DNA of 64,000 nt from Bacteroidetes bacterium GWE2_42_24 (GCA_001768515.1 MEOA01000020.1:5873-69872), one strand, 5' to 3'. Counted from the first letter of the stretch, positions 46,085-57,005 are shown. Numbers and translations are program-made. Notes: generated from the letters alone by a model not told the origin.

Positions 46085-46597
46085 ATGTTCGACCGGATTG
46101 AGATAATCAGAGGGGATATCACCCAGATAAAGGTAGATGCCATTGTAAATGCCGCCAATACATCTCTCCTTGGCGGAGGTGGTGTTGATGGCGCCATCCA
46201 CAGGGTGGCGGGTAAAGAATTATACGAAGAATGTAAGGGGCTGAAAGGATGCCCGACCGGAAGCGCCAGGCTAACAAAAGGGTACCTGTTACCGGCTCCT
46301 TTTGTGATTCATGCCGTAGGTCCGGTGTGGCGTGGAGGTACTTCCAACGAGAAGGCTCTGCTTGCCAGTGCATATCAGTCGGTTTTAAACATTGCAGTTG
46401 AACACAAGTTGGCTTCTCTCTCTTTTCCCAATATCAGTACAGGGGTTTATGGCTTTCCCAAACAGGAGGCCGCAGGGATAGCAGTGATTACCGTTATCAA
46501 TCATCTTGATAATCATCAATGGCCACAGAAGGTGGTCTTTGTCTGTTATGATGAGGCTAACTACCTTATATATCAGGAGATGCTTTCGGGATTATAA
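46085..46597 (+). CDS. Macro-domain protein (O-acetyl-ADP-ribose deacetylase, YmdB-like)
   Basis: 170 aa with GDITQIKVDAIVNAAN, LLGGGGVDGAIH and ISTGVYGFP. Confidence 0.85.
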   Translation: MFDRIEIIRGDITQIKVDAIVNAANTSLLGGGGVDGAIHRVAGKELYEECKGLKGCPTGSARLTKGYLLPAPFVIHAVGPVWRGGTSNEKALLASAYQSVLNIAVEHKLASLSFPNISTGVYGFPKQEAAGIAVITVINHLDNHQWPQKVVFVCYDEANYLIYQEMLSGL

Positions 46598-47902
46598 TCC
46601 GAACTCCTTGGCTTTTTTGGATGATTTGGCAGGATTCCAGGCGTCGTTATAAGATGAGTACCAGAATATCTCCTTCACATAGGCCATGGAACGGATAATA
46701 CGCATGTAATATCCATTGTAAACCATCATCAGCGGGATATAGTACAGTAACCGCATCTCCTGTCTGCGCCGTTCAGACAGGGACAGAACGACAAAAAACT
46801 GGATATAGGAGGAGACAGAGTATATAATTAGCTTTAATGGAATAATAAACAGTAGAAATTCAAGATTATTTACAATCAGATCGACGAAATAGTAGAACCA
46901 GAGAACGTCGAGAATCAGGTTGTAGAATATATTATCAAAGAGTGCAAAGAAGTTAGAGAAGGTAAAAGCCTGCGACGGCATGAAAATATCATTGTGCTTT
47001 CTGAAACGGAAACGAATAAGCGATTTGCTCCACCTTAATCTTTGGTTCGAGAGTTTATTTAAGGTCACAGGAACCTGAGTTAGCCCGACTGCCCTGTGTT
47101 CGAAGGCTACCTTAAAACCCAGCTTTCTGATTTTAACAGTAATATCGCCATCCAGACCCGGGCCAATATCCCAACCGCCGAGCCGATCGAGAAGATCACG
47201 GCGGAATGCCCCGAAAGCGCCCGAAACAATCTTGTAGATTCCAAGGTAAGCAGTAACCATCCGGCCTACGCTTATCGTTTGCAGGTATTCGATGGCCTGC
47301 AGGCTTGAGAGGATGGAATCCTTTGAGTTTCTTACTTTGATGTTTCCGCCGACAGCTCCTACCCGTGAATCAAGGTAAAAGGGAATGATAATACTCTCGA
47401 TGGCATCTCTGTCGAACGATGTGTCGGCGTCAACGTGAACAATATATTTTCCGGTGGCATAACGTAGCGCAAGGTTTGCCGCACTTGCTTTTCCTCCGCG
47501 TTCTTCATTACGCAAATAGATATCGATCAGACCGTTCTGCTTCAGGTTGCGACAGATTGTGTAGGTGTCGTCAGTAGATCCGTCATCGACAATGATAAAT
47601 TCAATGTTTGAATAGGTCTGTTCCCTGAAGCCTGTTACAAGCGCAAAGATGTGCTCTCCCTCATTCTTTCCCGGGACAATAATACTGATCAGCGGATTTT
47701 CAGCAAAGAAGGCATTGCGTGCAGCTTCATATTTTAGTTTGCGCTTTTTGGAAGGCCAAACGATTACGGCCAAAACAATCAGATCCATGAGTATAAACCT
47801 GGGAGCCTCCAGGTAAAAGAAGTACCAGAAAAGATTTATTATACGCTCAAAACCTTCGTGCTGAATGTAGTAAAAGAAGTCTTCCCAGAAGCCAAATAGC
47901 AT
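46592..47902 (-). CDS. Processive family-2 glycosyltransferase (PgaC/NodC/cellulose-synthase-like polysaccharide synthase)
   Basis: 436 aa with N- and C-terminal TM segments. Motifs are IIVDDGSTDDT, HVDADT, GLDGDIT (equivalent of the TED position) and QRLRWSKS (QxxRW). It is the last gene of the four-gene operon. Confidence 0.85.
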   Translation of the reverse strand: MLFGFWEDFFYYIQHEGFERIINLFWYFFYLEAPRFILMDLIVLAVIVWPSKKRKLKYEAARNAFFAENPLISIIVPGKNEGEHIFALVTGFREQTYSNIEFIIVDDGSTDDTYTICRNLKQNGLIDIYLRNEERGGKASAANLALRYATGKYIVHVDADTSFDRDAIESIIIPFYLDSRVGAVGGNIKVRNSKDSILSSLQAIEYLQTISVGRMVTAYLGIYKIVSGAFGAFRRDLLDRLGGWDIGPGLDGDITVKIRKLGFKVAFEHRAVGLTQVPVTLNKLSNQRLRWSKSLIRFRFRKHNDIFMPSQAFTFSNFFALFDNIFYNLILDVLWFYYFVDLIVNNLEFLLFIIPLKLIIYSVSSYIQFFVVLSLSERRRQEMRLLYYIPLMMVYNGYYMRIIRSMAYVKEIFWYSSYNDAWNPAKSSKKAKEFGL

Positions 47903-47905
47903 AAG

Positions 47906-49297
47906 TTACCTCCCGCTTCCGATCAATTGAGTAAGTACATCATTCTGAGGTAAAGAACCATCAATGGTCACCGTCTGAACCGAAATCTCGATATCAATTC
48001 CAGGCAGACTGCTTTCGAGTAGCTTGATAACTGAGCCTTTAATCTGGTTAATGAGTCCGTCTAATCTTTCACGATTTGTTTCGGGAGATATAAATAAAAA
48101 GGTATTACTATTGACCAGCGACAGGATGTCGGTTGAAAGGGTAGCATTTTTTACAAAGTCGGCAATTTCAAGCATCATCCGGTTGTAATTGCTTCCCATG
48201 TTTTCACGGGTACGGGGAGAGAGCCTGATCACCAGGCTGCCGGCCGCACTCTCCTTAGAAGTCTTTGCCCGCTCAATTTCATATTTCAGGAAAATATTAA
48301 ACGTCGTAGCCGTGATAAAGCCAGGAATGCTAACGTCTTCGGCCACATCACGTGATGGACCATTCTGGGCAGTCTCTTCACCAATTGGCGTCAGCTCATA
48401 ACTATAAATCGGCACATCAATGAGGGAATCAATCGAGTTGTTCTTTTTACAGACAAAACAGAAAGCCTCCATAACCGGTTCCTGGAATACATGGCTGCAA
48501 TTTTTGCAATTGTAGATTAAGGATGGCTTGTCATAATCGACACCGATGTGTCGTAACATACGGTTGCATTTAGGACATACCAGATAATCGCCTGAAAGAA
48601 AATCATGTTCAGGTCCGACATAAGCGCAAACAAAGTGATGTATCAGGTTCTCGGTTACCAGGTCAGCCGATTCACATTTGGGACATGTTTCACGAAAGTT
48701 CAGGAATGAACTGTAGCATGAACTGCATACATGCAGCTTGTCGACGAACCTGCTCCTGAAATATTCCTTTTCGGTAGCGGTTTCAAATAGCTGGAACATC
48801 TCCTTCAGATTGGTCTGGTCATAATGATCTGAGATAACCGGGAAGTTATAACCTATATGGGACTTATGATCGACAACAGGGGTCAGGCGCGTTTCACGGG
48901 TAAACATGAAGCGCATGGCTTTTGTAAGGATCCGGATATCGGGTGAACTGCTGTCAACCGATACCAGTTGATCCTGACGCAATCGTATTCTGTCGATTCT
49001 GCTGATAATGGCCTCGATCTGAACAGAAGAAACAACACCATCGCTCATCGCCTCCATCACTTTATCAATTTCATGATTAATTGACAGAATAAAGATGGGC
49101 ATCAGGTAGATAGTACCTATCATCGAATTACGACATTGTCTGACGAATCTGGAACAACCATCACGATCGGTGTAGTCAAGAATCAGCGCATCATAAATGG
49201 CGAGTTTCCTGATGTCAACTGAGTTAAAATCGTTGATCAGTATAATCTCCAGATTTCTGTCGTTACTAATTTTCCTTCCAAAAATGGGATCAGACAT
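47906..49297 (-). CDS. Receiver-like domain, five-CxxC zinc-ribbon module (TackOD1-like) and degenerate GGDEF-like domain protein
   Basis: 463 aa. The N-terminus has a REC-like strand pattern (LEIILINDFN...YDALILDYTDRDG...MPIFILS). The centre has CSSC, CPKC, CPKC, CKNC and CFVC. The C-terminus is collinear with GGDEF domains, but NSNTF replaces GGDEF. Confidence 0.55.
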   Translation of the reverse strand: MSDPIFGRKISNDRNLEIILINDFNSVDIRKLAIYDALILDYTDRDGCSRFVRQCRNSMIGTIYLMPIFILSINHEIDKVMEAMSDGVVSSVQIEAIISRIDRIRLRQDQLVSVDSSSPDIRILTKAMRFMFTRETRLTPVVDHKSHIGYNFPVISDHYDQTNLKEMFQLFETATEKEYFRSRFVDKLHVCSSCYSSFLNFRETCPKCESADLVTENLIHHFVCAYVGPEHDFLSGDYLVCPKCNRMLRHIGVDYDKPSLIYNCKNCSHVFQEPVMEAFCFVCKKNNSIDSLIDVPIYSYELTPIGEETAQNGPSRDVAEDVSIPGFITATTFNIFLKYEIERAKTSKESAAGSLVIRLSPRTRENMGSNYNRMMLEIADFVKNATLSTDILSLVNSNTFLFISPETNRERLDGLINQIKGSVIKLLESSLPGIDIEISVQTVTIDGSLPQNDVLTQLIGSGR

Positions 49298-49349
49298 AGC
49301 TTTTTAAGAATTTGAATGATGCATATCGCGAACGAGCTTCAACACCTGA

Positions 49350-50420
49350 TTAAAAGAACCGCAGTTTAGAGACCTGAACTGTGAACTGATAATAGGATCT
49401 CCATATTCGCTTCTCGTCATCATTCACCGGATTAACAACGGCCACAACATTTCGTTGATCCTTACCGCGGATTTTACGAAAAGGTTCCGGGACTGACTCA
49501 GTATTTACATAAAATTCCTTTATACGCCCCTTGCTTCTCGTTCCGTCCAAAAACCTGAGATTAACAACATCTCCGGGTTCAAAATATTCCAGATCGTTTT
49601 GCTCGATGAATACCCGGATAAAGATCTCATCGAGATTTGAGATATACATAATGATATCCTGGCGGAATGATATTTCATTCTCAGGCTTAGGTATCTTGGT
49701 GATAATACCTGAGACCGGACTCACATAATATGACTTAATCGGAGCGTTACCATCACCAAATCCAACCGTAGATAACTGATATTTTTTGTAATCATCCTCG
49801 AACGAGTCCAATTGTCGAAGGTACTGCTGCAGATAGCCCAGTTCACTAACCTTACGCTGCCTTTCAACACGCAGGTTCTCGACCACCATCCGTTTCTCGC
49901 TTAATATTGCAGGACTTACCAGATCGAGATGCACCTCCATTTTCAATCGTTCGATCGCTGCATTGGTCTGTGCTATATTATTGTCAATATCGCGAATATC
50001 TATATATTTCAGGCTAATGGTCTTCTTTGTATTCATTCGTTCTTTGGTCACCCATTCATTCGGTTTATCAATAACGACATTATTGAAGACAAATGCACCA
50101 CCATTCCCATTGTCGTGATCTCTGAAATCAGATTTGTACGCGAAGAGTGTATCTCCCTGTTCCACCATATCACCTTCAGCAACAAAATATCTGGTTATTT
50201 CTACATCATTGGGCTGTGTTACTTCAAATCTTTCGGTGATGACCTCTCCAAGAGAATAAACATAAAGGTTTTTCTGAAGGATATAAACAGCAAGACTCAC
50301 GATCATGAAAATGAAAATCGACATATAGATAATACGATCCCAATTTCGTGACTTTTTAGGTTTTTCTTCCTTGATTCCGGTGATGATGCTTGCTTTATTC
50401 TGAAATTTGAATTGTTTCAT
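49350..50420 (-). CDS. HlyD-type membrane fusion protein
   Basis: 356 aa with a single N-terminal TM segment (IIYMSIFIFMIVSLAVYIL). It has a lipoyl-like hairpin (GDMVEQGDTLFAY ... SGIITKI), a coiled-coil and a beta-barrel region. Confidence 0.75.
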   Translation of the reverse strand: MKQFKFQNKASIITGIKEEKPKKSRNWDRIIYMSIFIFMIVSLAVYILQKNLYVYSLGEVITERFEVTQPNDVEITRYFVAEGDMVEQGDTLFAYKSDFRDHDNGNGGAFVFNNVVIDKPNEWVTKERMNTKKTISLKYIDIRDIDNNIAQTNAAIERLKMEVHLDLVSPAILSEKRMVVENLRVERQRKVSELGYLQQYLRQLDSFEDDYKKYQLSTVGFGDGNAPIKSYYVSPVSGIITKIPKPENEISFRQDIIMYISNLDEIFIRVFIEQNDLEYFEPGDVVNLRFLDGTRSKGRIKEFYVNTESVPEPFRKIRGKDQRNVVAVVNPVNDDEKRIWRSYYQFTVQVSKLRFF

Positions 50421-50458
50421 TTTTTGGAGACTTAGGTGGTAAGGGGTTGGGCAGTCAT

Positions 50459-52600
50459 TTATTTTGATACTGAACGGTTATCCAGTTCAATGAGTCTGCC
50501 TAAATCATGGATGGCCAATTGATCGGCCCCCAATTTATCAAGCAACTTGCGAACAAAGGCCTCGAAGAGCAATCGATCTTTAAAATCGGCAGCGCTCAGG
50601 GCAACTATTGTCTTAGAAGCGTTAATAGCGAATTCTTCGGACACTTTCTGGGTAATATACTCGACATCCGGATGCTCGTATGCCATAAGGTATACCTTAT
50701 CGCACAGGTTGTAGATACTGTCTAGAAGTACCCTGTTGTAGTAAACAGGGATCGATACTGACAGTTGAAAACCATTGGCATCACAGATATTTCTTGCTTT
50801 CCTGAGCATGTTGATATACTCGGCCTCATACATGCCAGAATTGGTTTTGAAGTCATCTATGGTATGTATTTCAACATCCAGATGAATTGATTTCATTCCA
50901 AAACGGCGGGCAAGCTCAACCTTCTGTGTGAGGTATGAAACTGCCGATGCCGAATCAACCCTTTGGTGTCCTGTCAGTAAATGGGTGTTGATGTTGATGG
51001 CTTTGGCCTGAAAAACGAAATCCTCAACTTTTTGATCGAATTCAGGTGTCCTGTCATTACCTACCGAGAGAAGCACCTCCTTGATTTCTGAATTTCTCAG
51101 GTAAGCAAGCATTGTATTGAGCGGCATTTCTTTAAAGTCAGACGACCAGATATACAATGAACGTTTGCCCTGATATTTTCTCGATAAATCTTCGGGAGAC
51201 ATTACGCTGACAAAACTATTTGGGTTCTTCTCCTCAAGCGAGGAATAAATTTTCAGGAATTTTAGATACAAATCCTTCTTTATATCAACCATTTCAATCT
51301 CGATACTGATTTTTTCATCAAGAACAGATATGGCTCTCAACGGACTAAACGACTCAAGACCAAGGTCACGCTTCACGATCTCCTTCCGTAAACGCTCTTC
51401 TACAAGAAGCAACTTAAAATAAAACGAGATGTATTGCATCTTTTTAAATTGGTATTCATAGTAGTTGTTGAGCAATTCGCTACCCGCACCAAAACGCTCG
51501 TTTTCCTGATAGTTCTCCATGATCTTCTGTCTTGCTGCCCTCGATTCCCCCTGATGTGATTTGAGCTTCAAGGGAACACTCAGGTTAACGCCTGCTGAAG
51601 TATAAGTCCGGTCATTTGTATTGTCCAGAGCCATGTAATTGAAGCGTACATAAGGCTTCAGACTCCAGTCGGAAAAACGGTTGTACTCCAGGTCAATTTT
51701 GTCAAGCTTCAGATTGGTCATCTGGTTAGCGGTGACAGATTTGTTGAAGATGTCTACCATCTTGTTGGCATCCAGATCAAGAATGGGCAAATAATTATAC
51801 AGGAAACTGTCGTCGAGAATCATATCAGGAAATGAGTTCTTCAGTCGCCGGTTGTAATAAACATCATTGTTGTTCATCATAACCTCTACTTCCGATAATT
51901 TGCTCTGCAGATCAAGAATATCCTCCCATTGGATATAGCGCAGAAAATAAAGTTGATGTGCGATCTGAAGCTGCTCCTTCAACACGTTGTAGCGCTGGTT
52001 CAACTTTTCGATTTTCTGCCGTTTGAACAGATAAGTCAGGTAGTTGTATATATACAGGTAATTGCTCTCCTTGTTGTCGAGCGAACTTTCCAATTGCTGA
52101 ATTTCAAGATCTTTATCCAGGATTTTTGCGCGCTTCAGATTACTAAGCAACCCTCCACTCAACAAATCCCACTCAATGCCAACATAGAACCTACGGTTGT
52201 AGGTCAGATCTTCATTATCGAGTACGCCAGGTTCAAAATTTTCAATGTAAGAACCTGTGAGTTTTAGTCCGGGATCACCTATTAATTTTGATTTTTCTTT
52301 CTCATAATAGGTAATGAAGGCTTCGTTTTGGTTGTTAACGCTGTAATTGGTGCTGAACAGCATCCTGACGAGTACGGTATCATCAATCTGTTTAGGGGGA
52401 ATGGATTTATTAAGTTGGTTGTTAAGAAAAACATCAACCCTTGCTGATATTGATTCAAGACTCAATGAATCATGATCGCCAATGCTTGGTTTTAATGTTG
52501 TTACCTTTTGGCTGTATCCCGGTTCAAGCGAACATGTCATCAATACGATGATGGTTCCAAAGCAGGCAAACATGGATAATTTTGATTTCACAAACAACAT
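50459..52600 (-). CDS. TolC-like outer-membrane channel fused to a C-terminal GH18-like TIM-barrel domain
   Basis: 713 aa with a signal peptide. The two OEP-like halves contain YVGIEWDLLSGGLLSNLKRAK and SAGVNLSVPLKL. The C-terminal roughly 270 aa alternate beta/alpha segments. FGMKSIHLDVE resembles the GH18 DxDxE block and VYLMAYE resembles the GH18 MxYD block. Confidence 0.6.
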   Translation of the reverse strand: MLFVKSKLSMFACFGTIIVLMTCSLEPGYSQKVTTLKPSIGDHDSLSLESISARVDVFLNNQLNKSIPPKQIDDTVLVRMLFSTNYSVNNQNEAFITYYEKEKSKLIGDPGLKLTGSYIENFEPGVLDNEDLTYNRRFYVGIEWDLLSGGLLSNLKRAKILDKDLEIQQLESSLDNKESNYLYIYNYLTYLFKRQKIEKLNQRYNVLKEQLQIAHQLYFLRYIQWEDILDLQSKLSEVEVMMNNNDVYYNRRLKNSFPDMILDDSFLYNYLPILDLDANKMVDIFNKSVTANQMTNLKLDKIDLEYNRFSDWSLKPYVRFNYMALDNTNDRTYTSAGVNLSVPLKLKSHQGESRAARQKIMENYQENERFGAGSELLNNYYEYQFKKMQYISFYFKLLLVEERLRKEIVKRDLGLESFSPLRAISVLDEKISIEIEMVDIKKDLYLKFLKIYSSLEEKNPNSFVSVMSPEDLSRKYQGKRSLYIWSSDFKEMPLNTMLAYLRNSEIKEVLLSVGNDRTPEFDQKVEDFVFQAKAININTHLLTGHQRVDSASAVSYLTQKVELARRFGMKSIHLDVEIHTIDDFKTNSGMYEAEYINMLRKARNICDANGFQLSVSIPVYYNRVLLDSIYNLCDKVYLMAYEHPDVEYITQKVSEEFAINASKTIVALSAADFKDRLLFEAFVRKLLDKLGADQLAIHDLGRLIELDNRSVSK

Positions 52601-52728
52601 CTTTAATAAATTTCATTTTCGAAGATCAAACATTATTCCAAAGAGTTATGTTCACTGATAACAAAATAAGCAATGAAGAATCGTCGAAAATTATTCATAG
52701 ATAAAAACATAATACACAAATACTTAGG

Positions 52729-52736
52729 CAAAGGTA
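52729..52736 (-). promoter_or_regulatory. Bacteroidota -7 box (TAccTTTG) for the polysaccharide operon
   Basis: The minus strand reads atttacctttgcc about 125 nt upstream of the ATG at 52600. Confidence 0.5.
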
Positions 52737-52880
52737 AATAAATCTGGTATTCAATAATCGAAATAAAAAAAACATCAACAAAAAGTCTGGTGTAAAAGCA
52801 GACCTCTGTAATTTTCCAAAAAATACACATCTTGTTCAATTTAAAACTCGCGGGAGTTTATTTATCCATGGGAACTATGT

Positions 52881-52888
52881 TATCTTTG
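52881..52888 (+). promoter_or_regulatory. Bacteroidota -7 box (TAtcTTTG) for the divergent REC-HK gene
   Basis: tatctttgcgg lies 18 nt upstream of the ATG at 52907. Confidence 0.5.
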
Positions 52889-52906
52889 CGGACTAAAAAT
52901 AGCAAG

Positions 52907-54502
52907 ATGGAACCCAGACTCCGCTTACTGATAATTGAAGACGACCCAACCAGTGCAAAATTGATGCAGATAACCCTTAACCGGCTGGGATATGAAGTTG
53001 TCGGGATTGCTCCTAATGGTCAGGCAGCCATCGAACTTACGAAAGAAACAAGTCCCGATCTATTGCTGATGGACATCAATCTTCCCGGCCAGTTCGACGG
53101 TATCGAGACCGCCAGAATCATTAACCAGAAATATGATATCCCCGTCATTTATGTTACAGCAAATACTGAGGATGAAACCATCAAACTGGCTATAGCTACC
53201 AATCCTATCGGTTATCTGGTGAAGCCATACAGCAGAGAGCACCTGAAGACCATGGTTGAAATGGGATTTTACAAGCACAAACTTGAAAATGAGTTAAAGA
53301 AAAATCAGGAAATGCTCTCAGTTACTCTTGAAAACATTGCTGATGGTGTACTAATGGTTCAAAGTAACGGAAATATCCTGTTTCACAATGATGCGACGAT
53401 TAAAATCCTGAATCTGGAAGAGGAAAATTTATCGGGAACTTCAATCTTTAGTTTGTTTCCCAACATCAGTATTGATGCTTTTGATAATACAAAAGGCAAA
53501 TCTTTTCAATCAGCCGGTGTAATAACCTACACCGATGTTCAATGGTCATCTGATAACGGCCTTTCGCTGATACTTGAACAGCAGATAACCAAGATACAAA
53601 ATGCCATCGATGACGCTTCAACTTATGTAATAACTTTCAGGGATATTACGGCACGCAGGATGGAATCAATCCGTTTGGTTAAAATCAAGGAGGAATTGGA
53701 AGAACGGGTTGAGGTGCGTACCCTCGAGATCAGAATGAAGAACCTGGAACTTGAACGTGAGAATAAAATAAGAGTTGAAGCCGAAAAGGAGCTTAAAGAA
53801 GCCTTGGTTAAACAGAAAGACCTGACTAATTTTCAGGCAAATATTGTTACTACTGTATCGCACGAATTCAGAACGCCGCTCACTACTATACAAAGCTCGG
53901 CAGAACTTATTGAACGAAATGTTAATAAGGGATCAGAACCGGATGGTATTCTGAAACATGTAGGGCAAATCAGAAATTCGGTAACCACCCTGACGGCCCT
54001 GCTCAATGATGTTTTACTGGTCGAAAAAATGAATGCCTCTAAACTTGAAGTTACTTTAGAATCTTTATCACCCGAAAGCTTCTTTCAATGCCTTGCCGAC
54101 GAATATAAAATTGGTACAGGTAGAAATCACGTACTCGAATACCAGCATAACGTTTTTCCTTCAGAAATTAATATTGACAGGAAACTCCTTGGACATATTG
54201 TCAACAATTTGATGAGTAATGCTTTTAAATACAGCCCTGTCGGCAGTACGGTCATGTTGGTTGTATTTATTGGTGATAATCTATTGAAAATTATTGTTAA
54301 AGACCAGGGTATTGGTATCTCTGAATCCAATGTTCAATATGTGTTCGATACATTTTACCGCGAGCCATCCGCCGTCAATATCGAAGGTACAGGTGTTGGT
54401 CTGGCCATTTTAAAAGAATCAGTTGATTTGATGGGTGGAACCATTCAGGTGGATAGCAAAAAGGGGCATGGTACAACCTTTACGGTTTCCATACCCCTTT
54501 GA
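52907..54502 (+). CDS. REC-PAS-coiled-coil-HisKA-HATPase sensor kinase
   Basis: The start is taken at MEPRLRLLIIEDDPTS. It has a receiver (LLLMDINLPGQFDG), an H-box (SHEFRTPLTTI), an N-box (NLMSNAFKYS) and a G-box (GTGVGLAIL). Confidence 0.85.
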   Translation: MEPRLRLLIIEDDPTSAKLMQITLNRLGYEVVGIAPNGQAAIELTKETSPDLLLMDINLPGQFDGIETARIINQKYDIPVIYVTANTEDETIKLAIATNPIGYLVKPYSREHLKTMVEMGFYKHKLENELKKNQEMLSVTLENIADGVLMVQSNGNILFHNDATIKILNLEEENLSGTSIFSLFPNISIDAFDNTKGKSFQSAGVITYTDVQWSSDNGLSLILEQQITKIQNAIDDASTYVITFRDITARRMESIRLVKIKEELEERVEVRTLEIRMKNLELERENKIRVEAEKELKEALVKQKDLTNFQANIVTTVSHEFRTPLTTIQSSAELIERNVNKGSEPDGILKHVGQIRNSVTTLTALLNDVLLVEKMNASKLEVTLESLSPESFFQCLADEYKIGTGRNHVLEYQHNVFPSEINIDRKLLGHIVNNLMSNAFKYSPVGSTVMLVVFIGDNLLKIIVKDQGIGISESNVQYVFDTFYREPSAVNIEGTGVGLAILKESVDLMGGTIQVDSKKGHGTTFTVSIPL

Positions 54503-54528: not shown

Positions 54529-55764
54529 TCACCGGTTGGCTACAGGTGCCATCTGTTTAAAGTTTACCACGCTGCTGAGTTTATACTGTTGTTGCTGATC
54601 ATCAGTAATTCTGCCCAGGATATATATAGCATAATTTCCTTTAGGATTTTTTCCTGATCTTATTTTTACATTCAATGTAAAATCAAAGGGTTCGGGAAGC
54701 TCGTTGAGTGTAATGGTCAGGTTTCTGTCGTCAGATGTAAAATCTATCTTTGGACCGATTTCCTGATCGGGAGCATAGAAGTTTTCGGGGAGTAAAACTT
54801 TTATTTCACCTTTTCCAACGATGGAGGCTTTATAAATCTGAATATTCAGCGTTATTTCTTCACCCTCTTCAATCTCATCGGGAACTACCCAGGCAATCAC
54901 ATCAACCGTTGAGGGATTGGACTGGCCAACTTTACCCTGAATAATTTCGGGTAATTCGTTGTTAAGGTTATTTGTTTTTAAGGAATTCCATGCAGATCCG
55001 GTAGCGGTTGGCTGAGCCTGCGGCTTATCTGACTTCTTCAGATCAAACATATAACCAACACCCACAGAGGTATAGGAGTACATATCCTGTTTAACGGCTG
55101 AACTTCCTTTTACAGTTCCGTCGATTTTATCGGTACTCGTACCATGTAATGAGGTTTCTATGCCCAGATACACATTATCTGAAACATTATAGTTTAATCC
55201 CAGTCCTACCGACATCGAACCATCGAGCTCGCTTTTGCTTGAAGGTGCTACTCCTGCAGGAATGGTAACCGGCACATCACCTGGTTTGGAGACCGAATTA
55301 TTTATTGCAACTGAATTCACTTTCCAGTTGATAAAGCCTAAACCAACCGTCGCATACGTCCGATAGCTGTTTAAATAGCTATCGTCCTGCCACAAACGGC
55401 TAAAGCTGAATGTTGTCTGAAGACTTGCGTTTAAAAGGTTTGATTCAAATTTATACCCAAGAGCCTCGCTTCTGCCCGCAACCTTTCCGTTCATCAGATG
55501 TGCACGAATGCCAAAGTATTTGCCCAACTGCTTTTCCAGTGCCAGGCCATAACCCAGTCGCCAGTCACGCATATATGGAACACCATCTTCACTCACATCA
55601 CCATGAAATAACACGGCACCAAAGTGAACCTCTGCACGCCAGTTTTTAAAGAATCCTCCAGTTTTAGCGACAGAATCTGTGGCCTGTGCTTTCAGGGGTT
55701 CCGCCGTTCCTAAAATTAATATTAAGGAAAGAAACAAACTGCATTTGAAAAATATCCTGTTCAT
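54529..55764 (-). CDS. Outer-membrane beta-barrel (OmpA-N/porin-like) protein with an extra C-terminal domain
   Basis: 411 aa with a signal peptide. It has alternating amphipathic strands with aromatic ends (WRAEVHFGAVLFHGD, YGLALE, VGVGYMF). The C-terminal roughly 130 aa form an Ig-like beta-rich region. Confidence 0.55.
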   Translation of the reverse strand: MNRIFFKCSLFLSLILILGTAEPLKAQATDSVAKTGGFFKNWRAEVHFGAVLFHGDVSEDGVPYMRDWRLGYGLALEKQLGKYFGIRAHLMNGKVAGRSEALGYKFESNLLNASLQTTFSFSRLWQDDSYLNSYRTYATVGLGFINWKVNSVAINNSVSKPGDVPVTIPAGVAPSSKSELDGSMSVGLGLNYNVSDNVYLGIETSLHGTSTDKIDGTVKGSSAVKQDMYSYTSVGVGYMFDLKKSDKPQAQPTATGSAWNSLKTNNLNNELPEIIQGKVGQSNPSTVDVIAWVVPDEIEEGEEITLNIQIYKASIVGKGEIKVLLPENFYAPDQEIGPKIDFTSDDRNLTITLNELPEPFDFTLNVKIRSGKNPKGNYAIYILGRITDDQQQQYKLSSVVNFKQMAPVANR

Positions 55765-55991
55765 AGCTTATATTTTTCCTGCTTTAACGTCGCAGATTAC
55801 AAATGGTTTCACTAAAAAATGAAATTATTTTGGCAATGCAGTGAATGTCAATTAAATAGACATAATTACAGCCCAAACTTTATATCTCAAAAAGCATTCC
55901 AATAAAATTATTAAGCTGTTAATCAATTAGATAGCTATATGAAAATTTTGTATAAAAAGTCCATAATCGGGAATATTTCCGCATTTGGAAC

Positions 55992-56017
55992 AAAAAAAAT
56001 CGCCCTTATGGGGCGAT
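55992..56017 (-). terminator. Terminator downstream of tRNA-His
   Basis: The stem atcgccc / gggcgat is followed on the minus strand by eight T. Confidence 0.7.
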
Positions 56018-56039
56018 TATAGAAAGAGAAGTAATTTTG

Positions 56040-56114
56040 GGTGGCTGATGGGATTCGAACCCACGACCCTCGGAACCACAATCCGATGCTCTAACCGACT
56101 GAACTACAGCCACC
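56040..56114 (-). tRNA. tRNA-His (anticodon GTG) with encoded G-1
   Basis: The reverse complement folds as a cloverleaf: G-1, acceptor GTGGCTG/CAGCCAC, anticodon arm TCGGA-TTGTGGT-TCCGA, and T-arm GTGGG-TTCGAAT-CCCAT. Confidence 0.9.
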
Positions 56115-56231
56115 GTTTTGAGACTGCAAAATTACACCATTTTTGGAATTCTGCAAACACTTTTTTTGAAATATATTCAAATCAATGCTGCCCTTTTTTA
56201 CCTTTGGCATCGAAATGTAATAAGAAAAACG

Positions 56232-57005
56232 ATGGCAGATATAATCGACTACAAGATCTTTGGTGACGACATGCAGGTCGTTGAAATTGAACTCGATCCA
56301 CAGGAAGGTGTACGAGCTGAAGTTGGCGCTATGATGTACATGGAGGCTGACATTCAAATGCAAACGAATACCGGTGGCGGACTGTTCAAAGGATTTAAAA
56401 GAATGCTTACGGGTGAAGGCTTCTTTATCAGTACTTTCATGAATAGTGGCTACGGAAAGTCAAAAGTAGCCTTTGGTGCTCCTTTCCCGGGGAAAATTCT
56501 GCCACTCCACCTCGGAGAATTGGGAGGTGAATTTCTCTGTCAGAAGGATTCATTCCTTTGTGCCGCCAATGGAATTGACATAGATATTGCCTTCACAAGA
56601 AAGATTGGTGCAGGATTGTTCGGCGGAGAGGGCTTTATTTTACAGCGTCTGTCGGGCAACGGACTCGCTTTTGTTCATGCCGGCGGCACAATCTTGAAGA
56701 AGATACTTAAACCCGGCGAAACATTACGCGTTGATACCGGCTGCCTGGTGGCCTTTGAACCAACAGTTGAATACGATATTCAATTTGTGGGTGGATTTAA
56801 AAATGCCCTTTTCGGTGGTGAAGGTCTTTTCCTGGCTCAACTGAGAGGCCCGGGACTCGTCTTCCTTCAAAGCCTTCCTTTCTCACGGCTCGCCGATCGT
56901 ATTATCGCGGCCTCAAGAAATGGGCACCGTGAACAGAGCGACGGAATTGCCGGAATCGGAGGCGGTATCCTGGGGAGTCTTCTTGGAGGGGATAAGAGGT
57001 TTTGA
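56232..57005 (+). CDS. AIM24/TIGR00266-family protein
   Basis: The start is taken at MADIIDYKIFGDDMQVVEIELDPQEGVRAEVGAMMYM. The glycine-rich C-terminal tail is typical of the family. Confidence 0.75.
   Translation: MADIIDYKIFGDDMQVVEIELDPQEGVRAEVGAMMYMEADIQMQTNTGGGLFKGFKRMLTGEGFFISTFMNSGYGKSKVAFGAPFPGKILPLHLGELGGEFLCQKDSFLCAANGIDIDIAFTRKIGAGLFGGEGFILQRLSGNGLAFVHAGGTILKKILKPGETLRVDTGCLVAFEPTVEYDIQFVGGFKNALFGGEGLFLAQLRGPGLVFLQSLPFSRLADRIIAASRNGHREQSDGIAGIGGGILGSLLGGDKRF

Follow-up and report, generated by a model that had tools for sequence, protein, structure and literature searches.

Four tightly packed genes in Bacteroidetes bacterium GWE2_42_24 raise the question of whether a member of the Bacteroidota builds and exports an extracellular polysaccharide with machinery encoded entirely at one locus. 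The genes lie in a 64,000-nucleotide (nt) stretch of DNA (GCA_001768515.1 MEOA01000020.1:5873-69872), here called the window, and encode an outer-membrane (OM) protein, a membrane fusion protein (MFP), a regulator and a family 2 glycosyltransferase (GT2). A sequence-only reading of the window had proposed that they form a synthase-dependent exopolysaccharide system. Such systems have, to our knowledge, been studied almost solely in Proteobacteria and Firmicutes, and neither Bacteroidetes nor systems of the MFP/TolC type come up in a large operon survey of 2020. We consider it likely that the cassette is a self-contained, Mxd-type, synthase-dependent exopolysaccharide secretion system. Tripartite export of polysaccharides by a synthase, an MFP and TolC is already known (XcsAB-TolC, BgsBA-TolC and Mxd). 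New here are a dedicated OM channel that is encoded within the operon and fused to a GH18-like barrel, and the recognition of proteins with TackOD1 and degenerate GGDEF domains as cognate regulators of a widespread module of PgaC-like synthase and MFP. In Bacteroidales, the cyclic di-GMP (c-di-GMP) input to this module has apparently been replaced.

Gene content and conservation of the cassette

The four open reading frames (ORFs) run from 52600 to 46592 on the minus strand, encode proteins of 713, 356, 463 and 436 amino acids (aa) and are separated by gaps of 38, 52 and 3 nt, the same spacing that the sequence-only reading had given. A degenerate-pattern scan for relatives of the regulator, with one genome per species, yielded at least 593 genomes. 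Locus counts given below refer to the best 80 loci of this set, in which partners were sought by tblastn. An MFP gene accompanies the regulator in 80/80 loci, a GT2 gene in 79/80, the N-terminal half of the OM protein in 69/80 and the fused barrel in 59/80. Order and strand are common to nearly all 80 loci, and the OM protein and barrel form one ORF in most. The regulator gene is always directly 5' of the GT2 gene. The two lie within a few nucleotides of each other, and often the stop codon of one overlaps the start codon of the other; the junction is tight even in the rearranged locus L077. Because the four genes recur in the same order and strand across the 80 sampled loci, the arrangement is far from chance, and the co-conservation that had been left to a neighborhood survey is strong. 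Clustering of all flanking ORFs at the 80 loci revealed no further universal component; GT9, GT4 and aromatic amino-acid neighbors reflect synteny at the level of lineages.

The carriers belong to Bacteroidales, Flavobacteriales, Cytophagales, Chitinophagales, Saprospiraceae, Desulfuromonadales, Nitrospirota and Hydrogenothermaceae (Aquificota), and are mostly Bacteroidota of marine, sediment and engineered habitats. The 463-aa regulator is also recorded, in identical form, from a Bacteroidales metagenome-assembled genome. A locus labeled 'Arenicella' (L044) was rejected as independent proteobacterial evidence because of its Crocinitomicaceae synteny; it has the same GT9 neighbor and near-identical regulator motifs as Crocinitomicaceae loci; mis-binning or very recent transfer is probable.

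The GT2 matches Pfam Glycos_transf_2 (E = 4e-28), and its best NCBIfam model is PgaC_IcaA (TIGR03937), which aligns over nearly its full length with 170.9 bits, compared with 70 bits for NodC and 24.7 bits for CelA. The protein is collinear with Escherichia coli PgaC over 400 residues (29% identity, E = 1e-37), and the collinearity extends through the C-terminal transmembrane region of PgaC. In this alignment VDDGSTD, VDADT, SGAFGAFRR, LDGDIT and QRLRW of the window protein fall on VNDGSTD, IDGDA, SGVIAAFRR, TEDIDIS and QRLRW of PgaC, respectively. The motifs (DDG at residues 106-108, DAD at 158-160, GAFGAFRR at 228-235, LDGDIT at 250-255 and QRLRW at 287-291) are stable in 79 orthologues, with LDGDIT present in 71 and QRxRW throughout. 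A hydropathy scan places hydrophobic segments at residues 28-51 and 336-376, on either side of the glycosyltransferase domain, and matches to solved hyaluronan synthases extend over the QxxRW region (E = 5e-13). The earlier call of a processive GT2 with DDG, DAD and QRLRW motifs is borne out by the translation, and the closest family, PgaC/IcaA, carries QRLRW at the aligned position. By sequence comparison, the enzyme is best described as a processive PgaC-like synthase, but not as PgaC itself.

The MFP has weak Pfam matches to HlyD_3 and HlyD_D23. A profile built from 23 orthologues matches solved structures of a type I secretion system MFP (8dck, E = 2e-9), EmrA (E = 6e-8), HlyD (E = 5e-5) and MacA, in agreement with the HlyD-type assignment made previously, and hydropathy indicates a single N-terminal transmembrane helix at residues 27-54. 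In the OM protein, Pfam OEP (PF02321) matches residues 98-239 with 30.7 bits against a cutoff of 22. The window protein shows repeat 1 only, and 13 of 24 orthologues match OEP at E ≤ 0.01 on either repeat 1 or repeat 2.

MFP and OEP annotations, when seen in isolation, mostly signify efflux, so that the two envelope proteins might form an ordinary pump with the GT2 and the signaling protein as chance neighbors. We regard this explanation as barely credible, because the four genes stay together in one fixed order across phyla, because no inner-membrane transporter other than the GT2 (ABC, RND or MFS) occurs in the cassette or as a recurrent neighbor, and because the pairing of GT2 and MFP is repeated in mxd-type, Bgs and Xcs systems.

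Relation to Mxd and other known systems

The link to a known class of systems comes through the regulator, a cytoplasmic protein composed of a REC-like domain, a TackOD1 domain and a domain with a degenerate GGDEF fold. TackOD1 is matched with E = 2.8e-56 (190.5 bits against a threshold of 32). Its Cys motifs begin at residues 191, 205, 221, 241, 264 and 280 and comprise 11 cysteines in total, which are invariant among orthologues. TackOD1 has been described as an archaeal 'output domain' of unknown function with the same pattern of five CxxC and one HxxC as is seen here (PMC5847659). Foldseek identifies a GGDEF fold (FimX, WspR, PleD and PelD) in the C-terminal part of the AlphaFold2 model (pLDDT 86.4), and alignment over the full length with PleD and WspR, which are REC-GGDEF proteins, is consistent with a REC-like N-terminus. 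The GGDEF active site is replaced by N396-S-N-T-F400, and the I-site position corresponding to RxxD reads L387-S-T-D390, with the Arg lost and Asp390 kept. Pfam GGDEF (PF00990) has no match in the window regulator, whereas distant relatives do match, and a hydropathy scan found no transmembrane helix in the protein. The regulator composition of REC, zinc ribbon and degenerate GGDEF suggested by the sequence-only reading is therefore supported, with the zinc ribbon renamed TackOD1 and the REC domain recognized by its fold.

Proteins that combine TackOD1 and GGDEF domains were also found in Gammaproteobacteria by tblastn against a plasmid collection. Plesiomonas shigelloides p1 (L082, 6638-10338) carries a gene annotated as 'diguanylate cyclase', followed directly by genes for a glycosyltransferase and a HlyD-family adaptor, an order identical to that of mxdA, mxdB and mxdC (PMC3691769). 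The Plesiomonas regulator (TackOD1, E = 1.7e-61; GGDEF, E = 1.4e-10) is 29% identical to that of the window (E = 1e-36), and the Plesiomonas GT2, at 33% identity (E = 3e-55), is closer to the window GT2 than is E. coli PgaC. The same three genes are present in Photobacterium sp. DA100 (L083, 6695-10391). In both the Plesiomonas and the Photobacterium regulator the I-site RDTD is intact and the GGDEF motif is degenerate (RQDVL and KQDLL, respectively), so the 'diguanylate cyclase' annotation is misleading and these proteins are probably c-di-GMP receptors. In Shewanella, c-di-GMP and the phosphorylated form of CheY3 are both ligands of MxdA, a protein that probably turns on the Mxd machinery (PMC7666153), and MxdB is required for three-dimensional biofilm formation and aggregation (PMC3691769).

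Two further observations concern these gammaproteobacterial relatives. The Photobacterium genes lie beside a gene for a 667-aa membrane protein resembling c-di-GMP-signaling (EAL-type) proteins, as judged by appearance rather than by profile. The 29-kb mobilizable plasmid pKAM345_3 of Aeromonas caviae (L084, 6800-8182) carries a stand-alone gene with TackOD1 and degenerate GGDEF domains (RDTD; SEEIL), which adjoins partition, toxin-antitoxin and PAS chemoreceptor genes and has no GT2 or MFP gene nearby.

The specific homology of both the regulator and the GT2 to mxdABC-type clusters points to an Mxd-type system with its own OM channel. The cassette is thus, on sequence grounds, a homologue of mxdABC-type systems and not a mere parallel, the comparison having been made with the gammaproteobacterial clusters. 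The two kinds of locus share a HlyD-type MFP and a regulator with TackOD1 and degenerate GGDEF domains whose gene is directly 5' of that for a PgaC-like GT2. The resemblance to Mxd that was noted earlier is in this way strengthened, but the accompanying view that the zinc-ribbon regulator sets the cassette apart does not hold, since the gammaproteobacterial clusters share TackOD1. Other differences noted earlier stand. Gene order is OM-MFP-regulator-GT2 here and regulator-GT2-MFP(-MxdD) there, with only the adjacency of regulator and GT2 in common, and the dedicated OM channel gene with its TIM barrel has no counterpart in the gammaproteobacterial clusters inspected, which lack an OM gene. The I-site also differs (LSTD in the window regulator, RDTD in the gammaproteobacterial proteins), and the base motif of the GT2 is DGD in the window, AED in the gammaproteobacterial clusters and TED in PgaC.

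The tripartite logic is shared with two other systems, the cyanobacterial XcsAB-TolC model (PMC12430437) and BgsBA of Sinorhizobium, for which TolC is required (PMC13438883). As in these, a processive GT2 is combined with a HlyD-like adaptor and a TolC-type channel, and the cyanobacterial operons also include a glycoside hydrolase (the endoglucanase XcsC). Xcs and Bgs synthases, however, are BcsA-like, make glucans and detect c-di-GMP by way of PilZ or of their own C-terminus, and their TolC is encoded elsewhere and shared with other functions. The cassette instead has a PgaC-like synthase, a dedicated channel with a hydrolase-like domain in the same polypeptide, and a separate TackOD1/GGDEF-like regulator. 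Literature searches found no characterized counterpart in Bacteroidota, as the sequence-only reading had supposed.

BcsA, hyaluronan synthases and PgaC polymerize their products and translocate them through their own transmembrane pores. By family resemblance, the PgaC-like GT2 would build its polymer from a nucleotide-activated sugar at the inner membrane, extruding the growing chain in the same manner. The HlyD/EmrA-type adaptor, held by its one transmembrane anchor, may then provide a periplasmic duct from the synthase to the dedicated TolC-like channel, by analogy with XcsAB-TolC and BgsBA-TolC.

Several points weigh against this assignment of the cassette. With its 170.9 bits the GT2 falls far short of the PgaC equivalog cutoff (422.3 bits), and ORFs for the partners PgaD/IcaD, PgaA or PgaB occur neither in the cassette nor among recurrent neighbors. 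A profile of the OM family matches no TolC-family structure in the Protein Data Bank, and its hhalign alignment to E. coli TolC is weak, spanning 27 columns and only the hallmark strand and turn ('GVNLSVPL' versus 'GLSFSLPIYQGG'); because of these two results, the term TolC-like is used at the Pfam level only. The tie to the characterized MxdA of Shewanella runs through gammaproteobacterial look-alikes, and we know of no experiment on any member outside Shewanella, nor of an identified polymer even in Shewanella.

A different kind of product would be compatible with the same genes. MFP/TolC systems are known to export small molecules and glycolipids, and the GT2 might make a short oligosaccharide or glycolipid (as in NodC-like chito-oligomers or DevBCA-HgdD-like export) that the MFP and OM protein send out in place of a matrix polymer. 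NodC is indeed among the family matches of the GT2, and nothing in the sequence sets chain length. We nonetheless find this quite improbable, given that the GT2 aligns with PgaC at full length, C-terminal transmembrane region included, that an endo-acting GH-like domain in the periplasm fits better with a polymer, and that an mxd-type homologue is needed for the three-dimensional biofilm and aggregation of Shewanella (PMC3691769).

The channel-fused barrel and the product

The last ~235 residues of the OM protein have no Pfam match, and their AlphaFold2 model (pLDDT 90.9, pTM 0.87) is a compact barrel of eight beta/alpha units. Foldseek matches at TM scores of 0.5-0.65 include GH18 chitinases, SleL, PgaB, GH20 and GH84. 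In profile alignments the barrel is in register with GH18 chitinases, such that GIHLDIE falls on GIDVDWE (3g6l) and LMAYE on LMAYD, at marginal E values of 0.013-0.3. Among 35 aligned orthologous tails from several phyla the beta-4 motif reads G-I-H-L-D-[IV]-E-P-H, with the Asp (D575) invariant and the His and Glu (H573 and E577) at least 90% conserved; conservation also extends to the motifs M-A-Y-E, D-F and H-D. In beta-6, M180 and Y182 (domain numbering) are at least 90% conserved in alignment A2, and M180, Y182 and E183 are invariant in alignment A3. All conserved residues of the barrel map to the C-terminal ends of the strands in the model, which form the catalytic face.

The similarity to GH18 and SleL thus comprises the (beta/alpha)8 fold and the lining up of 'IG' in beta-3, 'D-x-E' in beta-4 and 'M-x-Y-[DE]' in beta-6. 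Unlike GH18 enzymes, the domain is just ~235 residues long and has no insertion domain. Its catalytic D-x-E and Y-[D/E] positions are occupied, with the two upstream Asp residues replaced by Lys and His. Two non-Bacteroidota orthologues have sub-threshold Pfam GH18 matches (26.8 and 20.4 bits, where the cutoff is 29.6). The sequence-only description of the 713-aa protein as TolC-like with a GH18-like tail therefore holds in that the OEP threshold is passed, the barrel is confidently modeled and the motifs are in register; its GH18 part has to be read as a remote, sub-threshold likeness to a fold with generic matches.

Among 1.84 billion representative proteins, searched exhaustively, only 379 clusters (50% identity) contain the barrel domain, nearly always at residues ~450-700 of 650-720-aa proteins, and the domain is essentially specific to the fusion. 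As far as the literature and databases examined reach, no earlier description of a fusion between an OM channel and a TIM barrel was found. The nearest solved sequence relative of the barrel is 10yv_A, a 275-aa Cellulomonas fimi protein (E = 1.2e-3), which shares the motif HVQLDVEPWTLPSW (HxxLDVEPWTLPxW) with window positions 50462-51223 on the minus strand. This structure was deposited as a 'putative GH97', an odd label for a protein of such size, and no accompanying paper was found.

PgaABCD/IcaADBC offers a partial parallel, in that PgaC/IcaA is the curated family most similar to the GT2, a TIM-barrel domain in the periplasm goes along with export, and PgaB's C-terminal domain (GH153) is among the fold matches of the barrel. 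Unlike PgaABCD, the cassette lacks PgaD, a PgaA porin with a TPR domain and a CE4 deacetylase. The barrel also keeps a D-x-E pair and has no profile similarity to PgaB, whereas GH153 has the Asp only, the second catalytic residue being without a counterpart there (PMC5933820). Membership of the barrel in GH153 was rejected, as hhalign to E. coli PgaB shows no relation.

The termini of TolC-family proteins are periplasmic, and the GH18-like barrel would for this reason hang beside the entrance of the duct. If the OM protein trimerizes like TolC, each channel would presumably carry three barrels. These might bind the polymer and probably trim or clear it, as BcsZ, the PgaB C-terminal domain, AlgL and XcsC do elsewhere.

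Variant loci bear on the role of the barrel. In Flavobacteriaceae-type cassettes the OM protein is unfused, the barrel is missing and a gene for a TviB-like dehydrogenase lies between those for the MFP and the regulator; a conserved 650-700-aa DUF4114 protein, for which no solved relative was found, is encoded downstream, and a kinase and a LytTR regulator are encoded upstream. The TviB-like protein, a UDP-N-acetylhexosamine (UDP-HexNAc) 6-dehydrogenase by its match of 410-428 bits, occurs in 9 sampled loci, mostly of Flavobacteriaceae. Draconibacterium-type OM proteins (839-971 aa; L008-L010 and L014-L017) keep the barrel-like domain with a degenerate H-x-D-x-E dyad (GLHYSLV, GLHYRLS) and have tails extended by an acidic linker and a SPOR-like (peptidoglycan-binding) C-terminus. 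Prolixibacter OM proteins have an intact dyad, and a SPOR-like end is appended to them as well. From the degenerate dyads and the barrel-less loci it follows that hydrolysis cannot be essential to the core machine.

The product is most likely based on HexNAc, a reading favored independently by the PgaC-like synthase, the GH18-type D-x-E and Y-E motifs and the UDP-HexNAc dehydrogenase of one variant. GH18-type substrate-assisted catalysis requires an N-acetyl group. The HexNAc suggestion of the sequence-only reading gains independent support from the dehydrogenase and keeps its conditional form. An alternative is that the same machine makes something else, for example a beta-glucan as in BgsBA and Xcs, and that the barrel is a non-catalytic module for binding, docking or gating. 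Much of what speaks for this alternative also weighs against an active GH18-like enzyme. The Foldseek matches are generic, with tryptophan synthase, MTHFR and similar non-glycosidase barrels scoring equally well; the window protein has no Pfam GH18 (PF00704) match and reads KxxHxDxE where the full motif would be DxxDxDxE; seven sampled lineages have lost the dyad while keeping the domain, and others, as in the Flavobacteriaceae-type loci, dispense with the barrel. In addition, the published tripartite systems are glucan makers, and the sequence of a GT2 does not by itself fix donor and linkage. We nevertheless judge a non-HexNAc product unlikely. The conservation of D575, H573 and E577 across several phyla, the confinement of conserved residues to the catalytic face and the GH18 register at beta-4 and beta-6 all argue for a catalytic site. 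The GT2 is also nearest to PgaC/IcaA, with a wide gap in score to CelA, and a UDP-HexNAc dehydrogenase sits inside variant cassettes.

Regulatory input and the adjacent kinase

By homology to the mxdA type, the REC-like/TackOD1/degenerate-GGDEF protein may act as a post-translational on-switch of the synthase. Use of a degenerate GGDEF fold as a regulatory module and not as a cyclase is familiar from PelD and FimX (matches 4euv and 3hva), the former serving exopolysaccharide production. In contrast to PelD, which is membrane-anchored, has a GAF domain and retains RxxD, the window regulator is soluble, combines the fold with TackOD1 and REC-like domains and has lost the I-site Arg.

The ancestral input to the switch would have been c-di-GMP at the RxxD I-site, which all non-Bacteroidota members keep. 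In the Bacteroidales clade of the window, RxxD is lost throughout, the Arg having become Leu, Phe or Thr. A hybrid sensor kinase is transcribed divergently from the cassette in the window, as the sequence-only reading had it; Pfam identifies REC, PAS, HisKA and HATPase_c domains in this plus-strand ORF, and no transmembrane helix was found, which indicates a cytoplasmic protein. The kinase neighbor is conserved in loci L001-L019, mostly in divergent orientation and downstream of the GT2 gene in L012 and L013, and the adjacency persists down to 41% regulator identity. Its partnership with the cassette is, however, tied to the clade or clades that have lost RxxD. A kinase homologue is present in the locus for 32 of 48 orthologues with RxxD lost (none in 16), compared with 2 of 33 with RxxD intact (none in 31), an anticorrelation with a Fisher p of 1.7e-8 over 81 orthologues in a statistic that ignores phylogeny. 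An Asp at the phospho-acceptor position is found in 43/48 orthologues that lost RxxD and in 13/33 that retain it, Glu being common in the latter.

The coincidence of I-site loss and an adjacent kinase in one clade indicates that regulatory input has apparently been rewired, and suggests that the input of the same effector may have switched from c-di-GMP to a two-component kinase in the clade of the window. Since the I-site Arg is lost, Asp41 is kept and a REC-PAS kinase is adjacent, the kinase is the more likely input there, acting either by phosphotransfer or through contact between a phosphorylated REC domain and the regulator like that of phosphorylated CheY3 with MxdA.

A competing view is that the regulator is still a receptor for a cyclic dinucleotide at a non-canonical site, or a metal or redox sensor that uses its 11 cysteines, and that the kinase is either functionally unrelated or controls transcription only, by way of an unlinked response regulator. 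Asp390 of the I-site is kept, the function of TackOD1, with its invariant cysteines, is unknown (PMC5847659), and Flavobacteriaceae-type loci pair a kinase with a LytTR DNA-binding regulator, as expected for transcriptional control. The case for phosphorelay input is further weakened in that the REC-like domain has no Pfam REC (PF00072) match, in that the conserved REC Lys is Ser in the window regulator (Asp41 and Ser72 are present), and in that the relation between RxxD and kinase, being uncorrected for phylogeny, may mirror a few clades. Set against these points are the replacement of the I-site Arg throughout the clade, the selective retention of the phospho-acceptor Asp where RxxD is lost, the persistence of kinase adjacency among divergent regulators and the binding of a phosphorylated REC protein by Shewanella MxdA (PMC7666153). 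We therefore hold the competing view to be possible but on balance improbable, and prefer kinase input for the clade of the window. The combined picture of a complete and portable machine that spans the envelope and serves HexNAc or HexNAc-uronic acid polymers, with an active GH18-like periplasmic enzyme on its channel and a TackOD1/pseudo-GGDEF switch rewired from c-di-GMP to a kinase in Bacteroidales, is doubtful as a whole and is offered tentatively.

Features of the locus and implications

Coordinates are collected in the table.

Table. Features of the cassette, the divergent kinase gene and a variant locus (window positions unless a locus is named).
Feature	Position	Strand	Basis or remark
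Outer-membrane protein gene, 713 aa	52600..50459	-	Single ORF: signal peptide, OEP/TolC-like half, C-terminal TIM barrel
N-terminal hydrophobic signal sequence, residues 1-26, MLFVKSKLSMFACFGTIIVLMTCS	52523..52600	-	Hydropathy scan
OEP (TolC-family-like) portion, residues ~32-455	51236..52507	-	Pfam OEP
Compact (beta/alpha)8 TIM barrel, GH18-like, residues 478-713	50462..51169	-	AlphaFold2, Foldseek, profile alignment
H573-L-D575-V-E577, candidate catalytic motif, end of beta-4 (GH18 DxDxE position)	50870..50884	-	
L-M-A-Y-E, residues 638-642, end of beta-6, GH18 MxYD equivalent	50675..50689	-	
Membrane fusion protein gene, 356 aa	50420..49350	-	HlyD/EmrA type
Regulator gene, 463 aa	49297..47906	-	REC-like, TackOD1, degenerate GGDEF
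REC-like N-terminal domain, residues ~1-110, Asp41 at phospho-acceptor position	48968..49297	-	Alternating beta/alpha pattern
TackOD1 domain, residues 125-302, five CxxC and one HxxC	48392..48925	-	Pfam PF18551
Degenerate GGDEF-fold domain, residues ~325-463	47909..48325	-	Foldseek
GT2 gene, 436 aa	47902..46592	-	PgaC-like, processive family 2 glycosyltransferase
TACCTTTG, candidate Bacteroidota-type -7 promoter box of the four-gene unit	52729..52736	-	Pattern search; 129 nt 5' of ATG at 52600
Hybrid sensor kinase, REC-PAS-HisKA-HATPase_c	52907..54502 (probable; ORF called 52832..54502)	+	Pfam
TATCTTTG, candidate -7 box of kinase gene	52881..52888	+	Pattern search; 19 nt 5' of ATG 52907
TviB-like dehydrogenase gene	L034 6577-7947; equivalents in L039, L049, L051, L053, L055, L059, L060, L067		

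The single TAccTTTG box behind which the sequence-only reading placed the four genes is present as TACCTTTG. The pattern TAnnTTTG is only modestly enriched in the window (70 observed against 54.5 expected, 1.3-fold), so one copy is weak, suggestive evidence of a promoter; a sigma-70 scan was also run, but that consensus is uninformative for Bacteroidota. No terminator-like hairpin was found on the minus strand inside the cassette, and Rfam families, riboswitches included, have no match in the leader or the whole region. Both results are compatible with a single transcription unit. RNA-level control of the cassette by c-di-GMP was rejected, as the Rfam scan gave no riboswitch. The called kinase ORF (556 aa) begins at TTG 52832, and counting from Met26 (ATG 52907) leaves 531 aa. 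Met26 is probably the true start, because TATCTTTG lies inside the called ORF and a canonical REC start (MEPRLRLLIIEDD...) follows.

At the 3' end of the cassette, a macro-domain protein gene (46085-46597, plus strand) converges on the GT2 gene, and the 6-nt overlap of their 3' ends leaves no room for a separate terminator. Beyond the kinase gene, 54529-55764 (minus strand) encodes a 411-aa outer-membrane beta-barrel protein (Pfam OMP_b-brl; DUF6089 weak). In the closest relatives (L001, L002, L003, L005 and L011) the corresponding place next to the kinase is taken by an ORF of equal size; of these ORFs, that of L001, the one checked by profile, matches OMP_b-brl below cutoff. A tRNA-His (GTG) gene lies at 56039-56113 (minus strand), and two mechanically listed ORFs (55985-56266 and 56091-56363) are spurious because both cross it. 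In two other loci, genes for large proteins with CotH-kinase, lamin-tail and chitobiase C-terminal domains and a type IX sorting tail lie directly 3' of the GT2 gene (L033, 8474-11551; L043, 10752-13391).

The cassette is a good candidate for the source of a major, unrecognized matrix or capsule polymer of Bacteroidota. Because one operon encodes all three envelope layers, and Xcs and Bgs borrow TolC, it would also be a cleaner and easily transplanted model for the still-unproven tripartite mode of export. The findings tie the orphan TackOD1 domain to a concrete job as partner of a GT2 synthase. The varied retention of RxxD, together with kinase adjacency, amounts to a natural experiment on the re-use of a c-di-GMP effector in lineages that may be without c-di-GMP. 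Should the combined picture prove true, it would provide the first function for TackOD1 and a case in which second-messenger input was replaced by a phosphorelay on the same effector.

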